From: a virus
Taxonomy: Duplodnaviria > Heunggongvirae > Uroviricota > Caudoviricetes
IMG/VR virus record: IMGVR_UViG_2802429249_000009
Reading direction: 5' to 3' (one strand)
Length of the DNA stretch: 28,641 nucleotides
Of this stretch, positions 54 through 5,072 are shown one piece after another. The position numbers were made by a program, and so were the translations under genes. Numbering within the stretch: position 1 is the first letter of the stretch; each line of letters begins with the position of its first letter. Below the pieces are notes generated by a model that did not search any database, was not told the DNA's origin, and saw nothing but the letters and a program-made list of their open reading frames with translations.

Positions 54-2103
54 TAAATCCAGAAAGACGGTAAAATCGGTTGAGCCGCAAATTTCCGACC
101 TCGCGAACTCATGGCTTAAATCTTACGGGCTTGATTACAGGCTGGAGCAGGCACCACTTAACAGCGAGATAGATAACGCCCTAGACGCCTATTTTTCGAA
201 AAATGGCGGCGCAGGTGGTAACCGTCCCGATGTAAAACTCCTTATTCAGGACAAATACGGCAGGCAGTATCCCGTCCTCATCGAATACAAAGGCTATAAA
301 GACAGGCTTATCCGGCTTGACAGTAACGGTATCATCGAGAATAAAGATTCCAGAAAAGAATGGAACTTTAAAAACATTAATGGATATGCGGTTAATGGTG
401 CAGTCCATTATGCTAACGCACTTCTCCAGTTTACCAACTACCCAGATATTATTGCGATCGGTATGACAGGCTGGTGCGATGATGATACAGGAGAACTTCA
501 TCATGAAATTGGCGTGTGGCATGTATCAAAGAATAATTTAGGGGCCGGGCAGAAGGTTGGTGAATACACTGATCTGTCGTTCCTTGCGGATAAAAATGTT
601 GACGGATTTATCGACAAGATAAAGCACCTTAATCTGCCGCCTGAGGAACTGGAAAAAATTAAGGCCAGCAAAGAGGAAGAGATAGACACTCGACTTTCCC
701 GTCTGAACAACGATATTTATCAGGATGAAAATGGGCTTGGCGAAAGTGATCGGGTTTATCTTGTTGTGGCCACGGTTATTGCCACTCTGGGTATTCCCGG
801 AAAACTTACCCCATTGGATAAAAGCGAGCTTGTATCTTCAACGGAAGAAGGGGAACGTGATGGCGATATTATTTTCAGAAAAGTTAGGAATTTTCTTACG
901 ATAAAGGGCGTCCCGAAAGACAAAAAGGATATGATCCTTCGTACTATGCAGAATACGCTGTGGACTGAAAATATTAATAAACCTGTCGATGGTGAAAGTA
1001 AGTTAAAACAAGTATTTATTAAAATTGTTAATGACCTGGGGGAATACTACAAAATCGGACTGACGACCGATTTTACCGGAAAGCTGTTTAATGAGATGTA
1101 CCGCTGGTTAGGGTTTACTCAGGATAAGCTGAACGATGTTGTTCTGACACCACCTTATGTGGCTACATTGCTGGCCAGACTCGCCAGAGTTAACCGGGAT
1201 TCGTATGTGTGGGATTTTGCCACGGGCTCTGCCGGGTTGTTGGTGGCTGCAATGAATGAGATGCTTATTGATGCCAGAGAGAACATTAACTCACCGGATG
1301 AGCTCAGACTGAAAGAAGCGAAAATTAAGGCTGAACAGCTACTTGGCCTTGAGAAGTTATCCAGTATTTACATGCTGGCGATTCTTAACATGATCCTGAT
1401 GGGCGATGGCAGCGCCAACATCCTGAACAAAGACTCACTGACCGAGTTTGACGGCAGATATGGTTTTGGTAAACCGGGAGAGAAATTTCCGGCTACTGCA
1501 TTCGTGCTGAACCCGCCATATTCAGCGAAAGGTAATGGTATGATCTTCGTGCAGAAGGCTCTTTCAATGATGGAAGGGGGGTATGCCGCGGTGATTATTC
1601 AGGGGTCCGCAGGTTCAGGTAAGGCGAGGGAGTACAACCAGAAAATACTTCAGGAGAATACGCTACTGGCCAGTATAAAAATGCCTGCTGATTTGTTTAT
1701 TGGTAAATCAAGTGTCCAGACATATGTTTATGTATTCCAGGTGAAACTGCCGCACAATTCAAAACATCCGGTGAAGTTTATCGACTTTTCGAATGATGGT
1801 TATGCCCGCTCGAACCGGAAAAAGGCACGAAACAACCTTGTGGATGTGGATCGTGCAAGAGAACGCTATCAGGAAGTTGTTGATTTGGTGCATTTTGGCA
1901 GAAGCCGCCTCAGTATATTTACGGAAGATGAATATTTTGAGGAGGTGATAGATCCACTCCGGGGGGACGACTGGAATCAGACAAAGCCTGTGGATACCAG
2001 GCCAACACTGGATGATTTCAAAAAAACGGTGAGTGACTACCTTGCGTGGGAGGTGTCGCAATTACTGAAAAAGCAAGGTAAAAACAATTCTGTGGGAAAG
2101 TAA
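1..2103 (+). CDS. Restriction-modification enzyme, fused PD-(D/E)xK nuclease + gamma-class N6-adenine DNA methyltransferase (Type IIB/IIG-like); 5'-partial, start lies upstream of window
   Basis: Frame 1 is open from base 1 to TAA at 2101-2103, with no ATG/GTG/TTG in frame before 463. Nuclease signature RPDVKLLIQDKYGRQYPVLIEYKGYKD is encoded before 463. Methyltransferase motif I (VWDFATGSAGLLVAA) precedes motif IV (AFVLNPPYSAKG), the gamma-class order. Motif recognition only. Confidence 0.75.
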   Translation, partial: PATSDQRPATSDQRPATSKSRKTVKSVEPQISDLANSWLKSYGLDYRLEQAPLNSEIDNALDAYFSKNGGAGGNRPDVKLLIQDKYGRQYPVLIEYKGYKDRLIRLDSNGIIENKDSRKEWNFKNINGYAVNGAVHYANALLQFTNYPDIIAIGMTGWCDDDTGELHHEIGVWHVSKNNLGAGQKVGEYTDLSFLADKNVDGFIDKIKHLNLPPEELEKIKASKEEEIDTRLSRLNNDIYQDENGLGESDRVYLVVATVIATLGIPGKLTPLDKSELVSSTEEGERDGDIIFRKVRNFLTIKGVPKDKKDMILRTMQNTLWTENINKPVDGESKLKQVFIKIVNDLGEYYKIGLTTDFTGKLFNEMYRWLGFTQDKLNDVVLTPPYVATLLARLARVNRDSYVWDFATGSAGLLVAAMNEMLIDARENINSPDELRLKEAKIKAEQLLGLEKLSSIYMLAILNMILMGDGSANILNKDSLTEFDGRYGFGKPGEKFPATAFVLNPPYSAKGNGMIFVQKALSMMEGGYAAVIIQGSAGSGKAREYNQKILQENTLLASIKMPADLFIGKSSVQTYVYVFQVKLPHNSKHPVKFIDFSNDGYARSNRKKARNNLVDVDRARERYQEVVDLVHFGRSRLSIFTEDEYFEEVIDPLRGDDWNQTKPVDTRPTLDDFKKTVSDYLAWEVSQLLKKQGKNNSVGK

Positions 2104-2162
2104 ATTTCCCGCTCAGCGATAAATTAAAAAGTGTTGAGTGGGGAGAATTCAGGATTGGCGAT

Positions 2163-3239
2163 TTGTTCAATGTGAGCACTGGTTCGCTTATTTCCTCAGG
2201 GAGATTAAAACCTGGCAAAATTAAACGTGTTTCAGCAAAGAGCGAACAAAATGGCATCATAGGAGAATTTGATACGGAGTTTATGGATGATGCAAGACAT
2301 TATGAAAATTTCATAAGCGTTAATTTCTTTGGAGATGCTTTTTATCATCCTTATTGTGCCAGTGTCGAAATGAAGGTACATGTTCTTACATTAAAATCAA
2401 ATAAGTCTGGCTTTAATACAAAGTGCGGATTATATATTACCAGTATGATTAATAAAACTTTAAAAGGGCGTTTTAATTATGGTCAACAGTTATCGAGTTC
2501 CAAACTTAGGAATGGAGAATATTTCATAAGGTTACCGGTAAAAAATAATGTAATTGACTGGGATTTCATGGATGATTATATAGAAGAGCTGGAAGCGGCC
2601 CACATAGAAGAGCTGGAAACATACATGGTTGCTGCTGGACTGAGCGATTACCAACTCACGGAAAAAGATCATCTTATTCTGGAGCACTTTAAGGATGTTG
2701 AATTTTCAGGTTTCCCTGTTACTGAATTATTCTCTGTGTGCAATACGAGAAACATATTGTCCAGAGATATCACAGAAAACAGCGGAGATATTCCTTATCT
2801 TTGTGCCAGTCGTGAGAATAACTCTGTCAGTACTTATATATCCTATGATTCTTCTCTCTTGGAGAAAGGGAACTGTATTTTTATTGGTGGTAAGACATTC
2901 GTTGTAACTTATCAGGAAAGAGACTTTTTTTCAAACGACAGTCATAATTTACGACTTTATGTTAATAACGAAGATGGTAGAACAATGTTTACTCATTTGG
3001 GGCTAATTACATGTATTTATAAATCTATTTCACATAAATACTCTTGGGGTAATAGTGTTAGCAATAAAAAAATCAAAAATGATGTTATCTGGTTGCCAGT
3101 AAAAAACAAGTTACCCGACTTTTGTTATATGCATAACCTTATTTCAGTCATGCAGAAACTCGTCATCAAAGATGTCGTCCAGTACGCTGATAAAAAACTG
3201 GCAGCGTACAGGCATGTTACATCTGAAAAAATCGATTAG
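2163..3239 (+). CDS. RM specificity (S) subunit with two target-recognition domains (HsdS / BcgI-B-like); N-terminus uncertain
   Basis: Frame 3 ORF with two variable blocks separated by a helical spacer (DYIEELEAAHIEELETYMVAAGL). TTG 2163 preceded by AGGA is the first canonical start, but the frame is open from 2082 and a TRD-entry-like motif (FPLSDKLKSVEWGEFRIGDLFNV) lies upstream of 2163. Second half is markedly AT-rich. Confidence 0.7.
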   Translation: MFNVSTGSLISSGRLKPGKIKRVSAKSEQNGIIGEFDTEFMDDARHYENFISVNFFGDAFYHPYCASVEMKVHVLTLKSNKSGFNTKCGLYITSMINKTLKGRFNYGQQLSSSKLRNGEYFIRLPVKNNVIDWDFMDDYIEELEAAHIEELETYMVAAGLSDYQLTEKDHLILEHFKDVEFSGFPVTELFSVCNTRNILSRDITENSGDIPYLCASRENNSVSTYISYDSSLLEKGNCIFIGGKTFVVTYQERDFFSNDSHNLRLYVNNEDGRTMFTHLGLITCIYKSISHKYSWGNSVSNKKIKNDVIWLPVKNKLPDFCYMHNLISVMQKLVIKDVVQYADKKLAAYRHVTSEKID

Positions 3240-3486: not shown

Positions 3487-3530
3487 TTGACATGGTTTTC
3501 TATTGAAAAAAGAATCGGCATTATTAATAT
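3487..3530 (+). promoter_or_regulatory. Candidate sigma70 promoter(s) for the tRNA pair
   Basis: TTGACA at 3487-3492 with AAGAAT about 17 nt downstream; alternatively TTGAAA at 3503-3508 with TAATAT at 3525-3530. AT-rich upstream, about 60 nt before tRNA-Thr. A CTTCGG-TT-CCGAAG palindrome (3535-3548) sits in the leader. Pattern-based only. Confidence 0.35.
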
Positions 3531-3671: not shown

Positions 3672-3746
<75 letters not shown>

Positions 3747-4012
3747 GAGAAACAAGCCTTATTGTATCGTGGCACTGGCGTATTTTTTATTACGTGGGGT
3801 GGGTTGTTTAAAAAAGACATTCTGTTCTCTGACTATGATTGGAGGTCGGTTGTAGTCACAGTGCTAATTTTTTACGGCAGCAGAATGGTGCATTATCGGT
3901 GGAGATTTTGTATTTCCTGGCAGGGTCGGTGATGCATCATTCTGGTGTTGTAAATAACACCATGACATTGAGATTAATCATATATTAAACAAAACCTGGA
4001 AATACATCCTTA

Positions 4013-4037
4013 ACCGCCTCTACCGGGCGGTTTTTTT
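4013..4037 (+). terminator. Rho-independent terminator after the tRNA pair
   Basis: ACCGCC (4013-4018) pairs with GGCGGT (4026-4031), followed by a run of 7 T (4031-4037). Confidence 0.55.
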
Positions 4038-4059
4038 ATTCTTAATTCAAAAAAAGAAA

Positions 4060-4084
4060 ACACGGACACTGATAATGTCCGTGT
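4060..4084. repeat. Perfect 9-bp inverted repeat with 7-nt loop (ACACGGACA-ctgataa-TGTCCGTGT)
   Basis: Read directly; no T-run follows, so more likely an operator or RNA hairpin than a terminator. A smaller GGCAATGCC palindrome follows at 4085-4093. Confidence 0.8.
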
Positions 4085-4321
4085 GGCAATGCCATGTAAG
4101 TCAGCGATGAATATGGCGCCAAAAAAGCGCGGCTGTCGGATTAACGCCGCGGGACAAAGTCCATGAAGAATAATAAGTATCAGCCTCCTACAGGAGACGA
4201 GTTGATATTACTAAGCTTTAAAAATGGTTTAAATCCTCAGATTAACCTTAATTTCAGGTAAGTCTTATTTCATTTCTTCGCGCCACGCCCGGCGCACATC
4301 AAAAACCACAGAGCCTTTCAG

Positions 4322-4390
4322 GGGTGAGCTTACGGGATGGTCAGTGTGACTTTCTCTGTGGGCTGGTCACCCCCGGGCGGAGGCTCACCC
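4322..4390 (+). promoter_or_regulatory. Structured leader immediately upstream of the TerB-like gene
   Basis: GGGTGAGC (4322-4329) is the exact reverse complement of GCTCACCC (4383-4390), enclosing nested palindromes (GTGAC/GTCAC, CCCGGG). Ends 5 nt before the AAGGA Shine-Dalgarno of the 4410 start. Fold not computed. Confidence 0.4.
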
Positions 4391-4409
4391 ACTAAAAGGA
4401 AAAGTCACG

Positions 4410-4835
4410 ATGTTTGGTATTTTCAAAAAGAAAACCCGCAAGGCCATTACTGAAGTGAAGAAGATGGAGAACCGCGACGCAGTGGAGGCGACCGTCTGGG
4501 GTGCGTATTCCATTGCATACGCTGACGGCACCTGCGACGCGAAAGAAATCGCAGTACTGGAGAAAACCATTGCAGCACTTCCTGCCTTTGCGCCGTTCTC
4601 CGGCGAGATTGCACAAATGAGTGCAAATATCCGCGCCCGTTATGAAGCGTCGCCGCGCTCTGCCAATGCTGAAGCCCTTCGTCAGCTGGCTGATGTTGCC
4701 GGTACTGATGATGCAGTTAATGTACTGTGCCTGTGTCTGGATATCGCTGACCAGGATGGCATTGGTCCGGATGAAGAAGCACAGCTCAAGAAAATTGCGC
4801 AGGCGCTTCAGCTACCGCTGGAGCAGTACCTGTGA
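4410..4835 (+). CDS. TerB-family protein (tellurite-resistance TerB-like domain), 141 aa
   Basis: ATG 4410 with AAGGA 9 nt upstream. The protein has the two TerB-type helical segments with acidic Asp-Gly motifs (AYSIAYADGTCDAKEIAVLEKTI and CLCLDIADQDGIGPDEEAQLKKIAQAL), matching the pattern I remember for plasmid TerB. Needs HMM confirmation. Confidence 0.7.
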   Translation: MFGIFKKKTRKAITEVKKMENRDAVEATVWGAYSIAYADGTCDAKEIAVLEKTIAALPAFAPFSGEIAQMSANIRARYEASPRSANAEALRQLADVAGTDDAVNVLCLCLDIADQDGIGPDEEAQLKKIAQALQLPLEQYL

Positions 4836-4984
4836 AAAGTGCGCGCCTTGTGCTGGCTGCCATCCTGCTGTTTCTGGTAGTGGCGGTGGATTTCACCGGA
4901 CGGCTGATGTCGGTGCTGGCAGATGGTGTGCTGGTGGCGGCTGTGCTGGCCGTACTCTGGCCTTTACTGCGTAAATCTGAATAA
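4832..4984 (+). CDS. Small hydrophobic protein, 50 aa, two predicted TM helices; translationally coupled to the TerB-like gene
   Basis: GTG 4832 overlaps the TerB TGA (GTGA). Product VKSARLVLAAILLFLVVAVDFTGRLMSVLADGVLVAAVLAVLWPLLRKSE. Below the track length cut-off. An internal ATG would give only 25 aa. Confidence 0.4.
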   Translation: MKSARLVLAAILLFLVVAVDFTGRLMSVLADGVLVAAVLAVLWPLLRKSE

Positions 4985-5072
4985 CACCACACAAAAGGCA
5001 TCTGCGGGTGCCTTTGACGGGGTGTTTTTTACGGGCCGCTGGTGGCCCTTTTTTATTTACAGGAGAAAAAGT

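Follow-up and report, generated by a model that had tools for sequence, protein, structure and literature searches.

Conserved, covarying leader RNAs in front of phage accessory genes, and a putative minus-strand unit beside one of them, in the late region of a lambdoid prophage

What occupies the roughly 370 bp that separate a phage tRNA unit from the TerB-family gene tciA, and what might this sequence do for the genes that follow it? The question is posed by positions 4040-4409 of IMG/VR virus record IMGVR_UViG_2802429249_000009, a stretch of 28,641 nt (hereafter the window) that represents the late region of an Escherichia coli-type lambdoid prophage. An earlier note, made from the sequence alone, had described this spacer as non-coding and dense in hairpins, and had proposed that it forms a structured 5′ leader holding the TerB gene off. 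The hairpin density is borne out, as the + strand of the 370 nt folds at -125.3 kcal/mol compared with -95.4 +/- 5.2 kcal/mol for 100 dinucleotide shuffles, none of which folded equally well (z = -5.72); for the minus strand z = -3.82. The leader proposal, by contrast, holds for only part of the sequence. The spacer probably comprises two independent units, a leader RNA (4278-4409) and a putative minus-strand unit (4046-4233). Over the last ~130 nt there is a conserved, covarying RNA fold in which a long-range stem runs on into pairing between the Shine-Dalgarno (SD) sequence and an upstream anti-SD, whilst the other ~240 nt are made up of unrelated modules whose hairpins are better read as minus-strand terminators and small hairpins.

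A covarying RNA fold directly upstream of tciA

The helices of the leader are given in Table 1. Central to them is the long-range stem recognised previously (core 4322-4329/4383-4390), which was confirmed and can be extended to 4322-4334/4378-4390 (13 nt, 85 % complementary). It ends at 4390, 4 nt before the SD sequence AAAGG (4395-4399), with the ATG at 4410; the nested palindromes that had been assigned to it (4306-4313/4354-4361 and a GTCA-GTG-TGAC hairpin) are also present. Helices P0 and P1 have no base in common with P2 and P2a, yet run across them, such that PL, P0, P1 and P2/P2a together would form either a pseudoknot or a two-state switch.

Structure counts were made on 50 distinct sequences aligned to a covariance model, with covariation counted per sequence and not per evolutionary event. 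For PL, P2a, P2 and P3 combined, 97.5 % of cells are paired and both-side changes occur in 17 of 25 pairs; for P0 and P1 the corresponding values are 88.4 % and 8 of 15. In each case none of 500 shuffles scored as high, although the family is drawn from related phages and shared ancestry inflates this test, so that the slid controls (28-52 % for the first set, 33-62 % for P0 and P1) and the comparison of cognate with non-cognate strands are the better guides. In the latter, cognate strands pair better than strands of other types or shuffled ones. P0 and P1 are absent from the model, hence the alignment was not fitted to them, and a smaller sequence set gave the same covariation result for both these and the model helices. 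Across homologues, therefore, the covariance check proposed in the earlier note has a clear outcome: five helices covary, the long-range stem amongst them. G.U pairs are frequent in the + sense of the leader, which points to a + strand RNA.

Individual helices display a variety of sequences with retained pairing. PL is also found as GUGCC:GGCAC and GCUUC:GAAGC. The central pair of P0 occurs as AU (21), UA (14) and CG (7) in this alignment not fitted to it; cognate P0 duplexes reach -11.3 kcal/mol against -6.5 kcal/mol for non-cognate ones, and strands matched by eye include CGCCCGG:CCGGGCG, CGCUCGG:CUGAGCG, UCGCACG:CGUGCGA and UCUCAC:GUGAGA. For P1, variants identified by eye are CCAAAGA:UCUUUGG, CCACCGAG:CUCGGUGG and CCGUAGA:UCUACGG. 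P2 has both-side changes in eight of its ten pairs, with 96 % of cells paired, and its cognate duplexes (-18.4 kcal/mol, versus -6.2 kcal/mol when shuffled) include, again by eye, GGGUGAGC:GCUCACCC, GAUGAGCCCUG:CAGGGUUCAUC and GUGAGCCUG:CAGGCUCAC. Elsewhere in the family P3 gives way to different hairpins in the same place, and both-side changes are seen. P2a is almost invariant, and both-side changes are confined to one leader (L180:1345-1491), in which P2 and P2a form, by eye, an unbroken helix of 18 bp.

Energetically, the nested closed state (PL+P2a+P2+P3) lies at -49 kcal/mol, close to the unconstrained minimum free energy (MFE), versus -40 kcal/mol for P0+P1+P3, and between 20 and 45 C the closed state remains favoured over the alternative by 7-12 kcal/mol. 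P2 alone (10 bp, mostly G-C) is worth -15 kcal/mol. Several roles raised beforehand fit poorly with these properties. A thermosensor is unlikely given GC-rich helices and a closed state that stays favoured from 20 to 45 C; RNA thermometers of the ROSE, fourU and lambda cIII types have a weak SD helix with mismatches that melts between 30 and 42 C, and the strength of P2 and the lack of a match to Lambda_thermo likewise lead us to reject them. Transcription attenuation is improbable, as no + strand T-run follows any leader helix, and binding sites for a repressor on DNA are disfavoured by compensatory changes and G.U pairs that work on one strand only.

Other elements considered within the leader did not withstand comparison. 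A helix UCAG:CUGG (4318-4321/4363-4366) and an alternative pairing GGGGUGA:UCACCCC (4321-4327/4367-4373) both failed in divergent types; a minus-strand terminator formed by CCACAGAG..CTCTGTGG and TTTTT lacks its T-run in other leader types; and a conserved peptide is precluded by indels and poly-G length changes that break every frame. The GGGGU run at the start of P2 (4321-4325) appears as 11-12 G in some relatives (L005, L131 and L185), which could be slipped-strand variation or a sequencing artefact.

Table 1. Features of the window, beginning with the leader RNA.
Feature	Position	Strand	Details
PL hairpin, GCGCC-ACGCCC-GGCGC	4280-4295	+	both-side changes in 5/5 pairs across the family
P0, PL loop CGCCCGG with CCGGGCG	4286-4292 / 4373-4379	+	
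P1, CCACAGAG with CUCUGUGG	4306-4313 / 4354-4361	+	both-side changes in 6/8 pairs (family)
P2a, anti-SD CCUUU with SD AAAGG	4314-4318 / 4395-4399	+	98 % of cells paired in 50 distinct sequences
P2, extended long-range stem, GGGUGAGCUU with AGGCUCACCC	4322-4331 / 4381-4390	+	
P3, variable inner hairpin, GGUCA-GUG-UGACU	4337-4353	+	
Promoter-like site (putative)	4205-4233	-	-35 TTTAAA 4228-4233, 17-nt spacer, -10 TAATAT 4205-4210; read from the sequence
Unit 2, shaped like a small RNA	4119-4198	-	5′ hairpin 4183-4198, AU-rich single strand 4163-4182
Unit 2, 3′ part		-	small hairpin GGAC-UUU-GUCC 4152-4162, CGCGGC..GCCGCG 4128-4151, U-run 4120-4127
Unit 1	4046-4093	-	small hairpin GGC-AUU-GCC 4085-4093, terminator 4060-4084, U-run (+ strand A-run 4049-4059)
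32-codon reading frame, uncertain status, MKNNKYQPPTGDELILLSFKNGLNPQINLNFR	4163-4261	+	overlaps the minus-strand unit
Rho-independent terminator closing the phage tRNA unit	4012-4037	+	8-bp stem and T-run (terminator scan)
tciA (TerB family), cargo	4410-4835	+	Pfam TerB; PHROG 'moron' category
tciB (DUF3927), cargo	4832-4984	+	Pfam DUF3927; PHROG 'moron' category
Terminator closing the tciAB cassette	5033-5054 (hairpin 5033-5048)	+	terminator scan
Type I-like methylase M and S genes	463-3239		
tRNA-Thr and tRNA-Gly	3593-3746		
Genes 3′ of tciAB			two holins, M15 endolysin, then terminase, portal and tail genes

Conservation and distribution of the leader family

Amongst tciA loci, 72 distinct leader versions were found. 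Between tciA clades the leader is 80-89 % identical; the coding sequences are ~50 % identical (41-43 % at the protein level) and the 130 nt upstream of the leader are unrelated. A terminator-like hairpin with a T-run stands just before the leader in 69 of 82 distinct upstream contexts. No sigma-70-like site was detected in 4040-4409 by a promoter scan confined to this promoter type, and nothing convincing emerged by eye or by scan as a promoter within the leader or overlapping the upstream terminator. In the window itself a covariance-model search returned a single leader copy.

Searches with a profile of the tciA leader (nhmmer), with covariance model R1 and by pattern scan of viral contigs revealed more than 40 distinct related leaders of 105-140 nt, most of which start right after a terminator and all of which end in CUAAAAGGAA and a start codon. 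Their place is thus between an intrinsic terminator and the ribosome-binding site (RBS) of phage accessory genes, and the genes concerned are unrelated: they encode TciA, anti-repressors of the KilAC and P22_AR_N types, KilA-N and Rha-like proteins, a glycosyltransferase and several unknown families. What is shown for the family is conserved, covarying helices, complementarity to the SD and a link to many different cargo genes. A sister leader precedes ant in 274 phage records, mostly of Shiga toxin (Stx)-converting phages. Others precede phi80 rha and phi80 gene 66 or are present in mEp phages, and HK639 has a leader cassette with gene 13 that is bounded by two annotated terminators and set among the tail genes. 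The tciA-type leader is also common in chromosomes, a leader-only search placing it at 2345 sites in 952 of 5426 complete E. coli genomes; it was unannotated in all 12 of the matches listed.

The classical IHF-dependent Rha phenotype is attributable to the gene rha. Its leader in phi80 (L346 402-537; JX871397 ~43642-43777) scores 49 bits; judged by the SD and AUG of this leader, translation would begin 12 codons further downstream than annotated. The passage of PMC4936722 that cites Henthorn and Friedman (1995) reports phi80 rha to be regulated by integration host factor (IHF). The leader family hence precedes a gene with a long-known, mechanistically unexplained dependence on this host protein.

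No Rfam family corresponds to the leader. The Rfam search advised in the earlier note gave no riboswitch or other cis-regulatory family at gathering score, the leader (4258-4382) returning only chance-level matches of the miRNA type at E <= 10, and six other leader-family members had no Rfam match at E <= 0.1. No EcOnc Hfq peak is on record for the leader of Sakai Sp10. Full-text searches, which reached few subscription journals, found no literature description of the family. It therefore appears to be undescribed with respect to its fold, its crossing helices and its use as a portable, promoter-less front end for unrelated cargo, whilst the principles of SD sequestration by a long-range helix and of RNA control of anti-repressors are already known.

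Two variations within the family deserve mention. The 5′ halves of leaders are found joined to unrelated sequence in L190, L183 (7994-8122), L200, L132, L209 and L120, and these junctions are recombination breakpoints inside the leader. Furthermore, some tciA copies are shortened to 16 codons.

Proposed mechanism and alternatives

On the basis of these features, 4278-4409 is probably a cis-acting translational lock on tciA. The RNA would begin with the PL hairpin, after which the long P2+P2a helix would mask the SD AAAGG with CCUUU; with this pairing in place, it is proposed, the ribosome cannot load, and translation would be repressed. Two readings of P0 and P1 can be envisaged. In one, the helices would coexist, with P0 stacked on P2, to give a double pseudoknot that secures the closed state. 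In the other, P0 and P1 would be the alternative, open state of a switch and would form first during transcription, leaving the SD briefly free, before the RNA relaxes to the closed state. Because the leader mostly lies right after a terminator and no promoter is seen, its synthesis would depend entirely on polymerase reading through, presumably in the Q-modified form. The likely task of the leader would be to shut off accessory genes embedded in the late operon, or to allow them very little translation, unless it is opened.

Several observations count against this reading. A simple hairpin would suffice to damp translation, and the extra helices are not explained by a lock. The window is itself one of the exceptions in which no terminator directly precedes the leader. 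For tciA leaders taken alone, covariation is weak, with 0 compensatory pairs by RNAalifold and 3 in the hand-drawn structure; RNAalifold predicts a plain long hairpin for these leaders, but is uninformative here because the sequences are too alike. In addition, the family alignment is partly fitted to the model, leaning towards PL, P2 and P2a, and its most divergent registers were set by eye. Finally, as the pairing of SD and anti-SD is almost invariant, with covariation from one sequence, it could reflect two independent constraints.

The main rival explanation is that the leader is a sensor and not a passive lock, either an aptamer whose binding of a small molecule, of a protein or of a small RNA (sRNA) with Hfq would determine if the SD is accessible, or a device alternating between PL+P2+P2a and P0+P1, in the latter version with the open state forming first during transcription. 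Both helix sets are under selection, the 5′ strand of P0 reaches 1-2 nt into the PL stem, and the 3′ strands of P0 and P2 are 0-1 nt apart in every type inspected. Conserved junction bases (CAG after the anti-SD, GGGCUGG and YYCC), an A-rich single strand after PL (CAUCAAAAA, or CAUCAAAGAAAG in other types) and a difference of only 6-13 kcal/mol between the nested states would also suit a sensor. The two helix sets, however, share no strand, unlike those of usual switches; no ligand logic is apparent, because the cargo functions are unrelated; and neither an Rfam riboswitch match nor a complementary sRNA was identified. We regard a sensor as rather unlikely. The + strand tail that ends with the tRNA terminator (3968-4037; CCUGGAAA) was considered as a partner for the anti-SD, but its 7-bp match is not conserved in relatives. 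A broader proposal, and an unlikely one in our estimation, is that the whole family constitutes a phage-borne RNA switch that frees the RBSs of anti-repressor, Rha-type and other genes upon a cellular or phage signal. Its basis would be an aptamer containing a pseudoknot, or a two-state fold caught in a kinetic trap; the signal might be a small molecule, an sRNA together with Hfq, RNase III or how fast antiterminated polymerase moves.

Very unlikely is a function at the DNA level alone, in which the leader would be a boundary or linker that helps cassettes to be exchanged through homologous recombination, or a site to which a protein binds, and its fold incidental. In keeping with this, leaders have the same start (GCGC..GCGCACAUCAAA) and end (CUAAAAGGAA) around variable interiors and differing cargo, their 5′ halves can be fused to unrelated DNA, and phages without tciAB have a PL-like hairpin in front of holin S; the region after PL moreover resembles the first half of the IHF consensus (ATCAA), and IHF regulation of phi80 rha is reported in the passage noted above (PMC4936722). 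Recombination homology, though, needs no compensatory changes in five helices, G.U pairs are tolerated in the + sense only, the anti-SD pairs with the SD, and the second half of the IHF consensus (TTR) is missing. Exchange at the DNA level is in any case compatible with an RNA function and not an alternative to it.

Should the fold act as a translational lock in the manner proposed, one unannotated RNA device would control a whole class of phage accessory genes, explaining how extra genes can ride a strongly transcribed late operon without over-expression. A leader placed behind a terminator would let accessory genes be made sparingly, which matters for anti-repressors, and would offer a handle on anti-repressor control and hence on prophage cross-induction in pathogenic E. 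coli. It would likewise provide start-codon and boundary rules for annotating such cassettes. If the switch proposal were correct, one RNA device would time the expression of those genes through which prophages communicate with one another and with the host.

The minus-strand unit and the overlapping reading frame

The left part of the spacer appears to harbour a minus-strand transcription unit (4046-4233) with a promoter-like site, two tandem Rho-independent terminators and the shape of an Hfq-type sRNA (Table 1). RNAs of that type, acting in trans, have their own promoter, a single-stranded seed and a 3′ hairpin with a U-tail, and bind Hfq and targets; the layout of the unit would suit such an RNA. 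The MFE fold of 4198->4119 is exactly the layout given for unit 2. In an alignment of 16 relatives, 92.5 % of cells in the minus-strand helices are paired, both-side changes occur in 8 of 29 pairs (reached by 0 of 500 shuffles) and several G.U pairs are possible in the minus sense only. Unit 1 (fold z = -3.6) displays two compensatory pairs in its terminator stem and one in its small hairpin, and is separated from the U-run of unit 2 by a spacer of ~25 nt ahead of that hairpin.

Both terminators involve inverted repeats that had been remarked upon before. The perfect 9-bp repeat (4060-4068/4076-4084) is indeed present, but the statement that it lacks a T-run is true of the + strand only: the scan called 4084->4060 followed by TTTCTTTTTT a minus-strand terminator, with 11 pairs. 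CGCGGC (4128-4133) and GCCGCG (4146-4151) are also as described, pair in the fold and were counted as a helix; this hairpin is followed by CTTTTTT on the minus strand (CUUUUUU in the RNA), its 12-nt loop exceeds the limit of the scan, and its stem covaries. Transcription of the unit as proposed would converge on the + strand terminator of the phage tRNA genes (4012-4037).

Set against such a unit are a promoter-like site with 8 of 12 matches, which falls under the scan threshold, hairpins that could be plain bidirectional terminators, and a + strand open reading frame (ORF) that overlaps it. In L008/L009 the -35 element is identical, the -10 element has one changed base (TAGTAT) and four spacer bases differ. 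As to the ORF, the spacer had been said to contain no convincing one, and none does exceed 38 codons; a 32-codon ORF (4163-4261) is, however, kept in most relatives, with its start (ATG or GTG) and stop. It shows several synonymous changes, e.g. AGG to CGA, and occurs in two phage records, annotated in neither, whilst a frameshift or internal stop interrupts it in 7 of 19 distinct variants and ~17 of 37 instances.

In another explanation, the left 240 bp would form only an insulator of back-to-back terminators that stops tRNA read-through on one side and stray antisense transcription on the other, with no sRNA and with the 32-codon ORF perhaps a real gene. The terminator scan does find convergent terminators, an 88 % copy of the small hairpin and CGCGGC terminator of unit 2, found after yodB in 5417 of 5426 E. 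coli genomes, looks like an ordinary terminator, and the retention of the ORF with synonymous changes would agree with coding. An insulator nevertheless leaves unaccounted for two tandem terminators, both with a conserved small hairpin ahead of them, the conservation of a -35/-10 pair lying 70-80 nt upstream, and the typical sRNA layout; abundant Hfq-bound convergent sRNAs are known at the equivalent site of enterohaemorrhagic E. coli (EHEC) prophages (PMC4104026), and the ORF is broken in the variants mentioned. The insulator explanation is somewhat unlikely. If the minus-strand unit is transcribed as suggested, it would be a further candidate amongst the prophage sRNAs that rewire host regulation.

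Comparison with described regulatory RNAs

Leaders that sequester the SD by long-range pairing are known from E. coli rpoS, from lambda cIII, which has two alternative structures (Rfam Lambda_thermo), and from lambda N, which is opened by RNase III. The window leader resembles these in that a long helix is closed at its foot by pairing between the SD and an upstream anti-SD, the conserved CCUUU:AAAGG extending the covarying P2, as well as in its lambdoid origin and, perhaps, in having two conformers. In common with rpoS, it has an A-rich single strand further upstream. It differs in its unrelated sequence, in its architecture of crossing helices with a PL-loop pseudoknot, and in being portable and common to unrelated genes.

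A further parallel is the antisense control of anti-repressors, exemplified by P22 sar acting on ant and by P1/P7 C4 acting on icd-ant (Rfam C4). In P1 a single transcript carries both the C4 regulator, in its upstream part, and the target, and loops of the regulator pair with sites near the RBS. As in these systems, anti-repressor genes in or near late regions would be kept down at the RBS by RNA pairing; in contrast to them, the pairing of the window leader is intramolecular and nested, proceeds without a separate processed RNA, and extends to cargo beyond ant. Neither the window nor six other family members gave an Rfam C4 match, and a C4-like antisense RNA, although considered, is unsupported.

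The classical moron is an additional gene that brings its own promoter and is followed by a terminator. Like morons, the tciAB cassette and HK639 gene 13 sit in the late operon and are closed by their own terminator; unlike them, they appear to have a promoter-less structured leader after an upstream terminator, no sigma-70-like site being detected in 4040-4409. For morons of lambdoid phages, see Juhala et al. (2000), as quoted in PMC4104026. The site in question is of the type at which Stx phages carry stx and extra genes ('morons') pile up. In EHEC prophages, convergent sRNAs bound by Hfq were described from the moron site by Tree et al. (PMC4104026). Convergent prophage sRNAs of this kind include the anti-sRNAs AgvB and AsxR, STnc100/PasD and PasA/PasC (PMC4104026, PMC8550237, bioRxiv 10.64898/2026.05.13.724894). 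The minus-strand unit would share with AgvB, AsxR and the Pas RNAs a late-region site by tRNAs and a moron, convergence on back-to-back terminators, and the form of a short RNA with a 3′ hairpin and U-tail, in addition to, by eye, a CAUGNNAUUGCC-like motif before the terminator. In O157 Sakai Sp10 (L232 4228-4482), STnc100 (+) and AgvB (-) lie back to back just downstream of tciAB. The convergent pair hence follows the cassette there, whereas the analogous minus-strand unit of the window precedes it.

Despite this likeness of setting, the minus-strand unit corresponds to none of the named RNAs. AgvB and AsxR (RF02702, RF02703), which are recognised by a conserved 3′ region of ~42 nt in an RNA of 51-60 nt, have no match in 3740-4480 at E <= 10, the same library giving 96.5 bits for AgvB of Sakai Sp10, and the best window match to the conserved 3′ region has more than 7 mismatches. 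STnc100/PasD (RF02076), at 145.8 bits in Sakai, is without a match in the window, and the published northern probes for PasA-D match it either not at all or with 7 mismatches.

Ribozymes related to that of hepatitis delta virus (HDV) are characterised by a nested double pseudoknot, a P3 of 3 bp, an L3 of 7-8 nt, a P1.1 of 2 bp and a catalytic C in J4/2. The leader has the strand order P1-P2-P3-P1'-P2' in common with them, but such a ribozyme is rejected on the grounds of, by eye, a P3 that varies from 4 to 7 bp with a loop of 3-7 nt and no bases for P1.1, and of no Rfam match. An integron attC-like site can also be dismissed, as its core motifs are missing by eye.

Genomic setting and mosaic structure of the spacer

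BLAST comparisons indicate that 4040-4409 is a mosaic inside the late region, its parts matching different sets of genomes. The segment 4040-4120 is found in close relatives only; for 4118-4164 the core genome holds an 88 % copy in the interval from yodB to serU; 4121-4303 has its counterpart in the spacer that separates the phage tRNAs from holin S in Rac/DLP12-like phages; and 4268-4409 is a widespread module that lies directly 5′ of tciA in every phage examined, whatever its upstream DNA. These differing distributions rule out a single continuous leader of 370 nt. The core-genome copy, which corresponds to the small hairpin, the CGCGGC hairpin and the U-run (4120-4162; L007 2501-2550; in K-12 between yodB and serU; 88 %, 5417 of 5426 E. 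coli genomes), is situated on the yodB strand ~240 nt after yodB and adjoins the serU phage attachment site; it represents the terminator of yodB or else what is left of an old prophage.

Upstream of the spacer, the antitermination (Q) gene is located a few kb away in close relatives on E. coli chromosomes. Between this presumed Q region and the phage tRNAs, the window carries an orphan type I-like methyltransferase pair, consisting of an N6_Mtase of 546 aa and a specificity subunit of 358 aa (463-3239). Ahead of tRNA-Thr is a promoter-like site, TTGACA-17-AAGAAT (3487-3515), which fits the report that phage tRNAs own a promoter (PMC7547250); in the window, the terminator at 4012-4037 stands between this site and tciA. 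That terminator is kept in aligned relatives, with a variable loop. It closes a 70-nt AU-rich + strand tail (3968-4037) that folds like a short sRNA and of which it is possibly the 3′ end; the tail has a weak CyaR-like Rfam match of 28.8 bits, below the gathering score of 47. Other relatives combine the same terminator with a different body carrying an AgvB-like AUCUCAUGCAUUGACC motif. An imperfect inverted repeat with 31-nt arms (3868-3898/3927-3957, 77 % complementary) lies between tRNA-Gly and the terminator.

On the other side of the cassette, the terminator hairpin after tciB, GGGCCGCTGGTGGCC(C), has a near-identical counterpart upstream of holin S in L008/L009, which have no tciAB. There it is preceded by a PL-like hairpin, GCGCCACATCTGGCGC. 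As a PL-like hairpin and the terminator are adjacent in phages without tciAB, the tciAB cassette looks to have been inserted between them.

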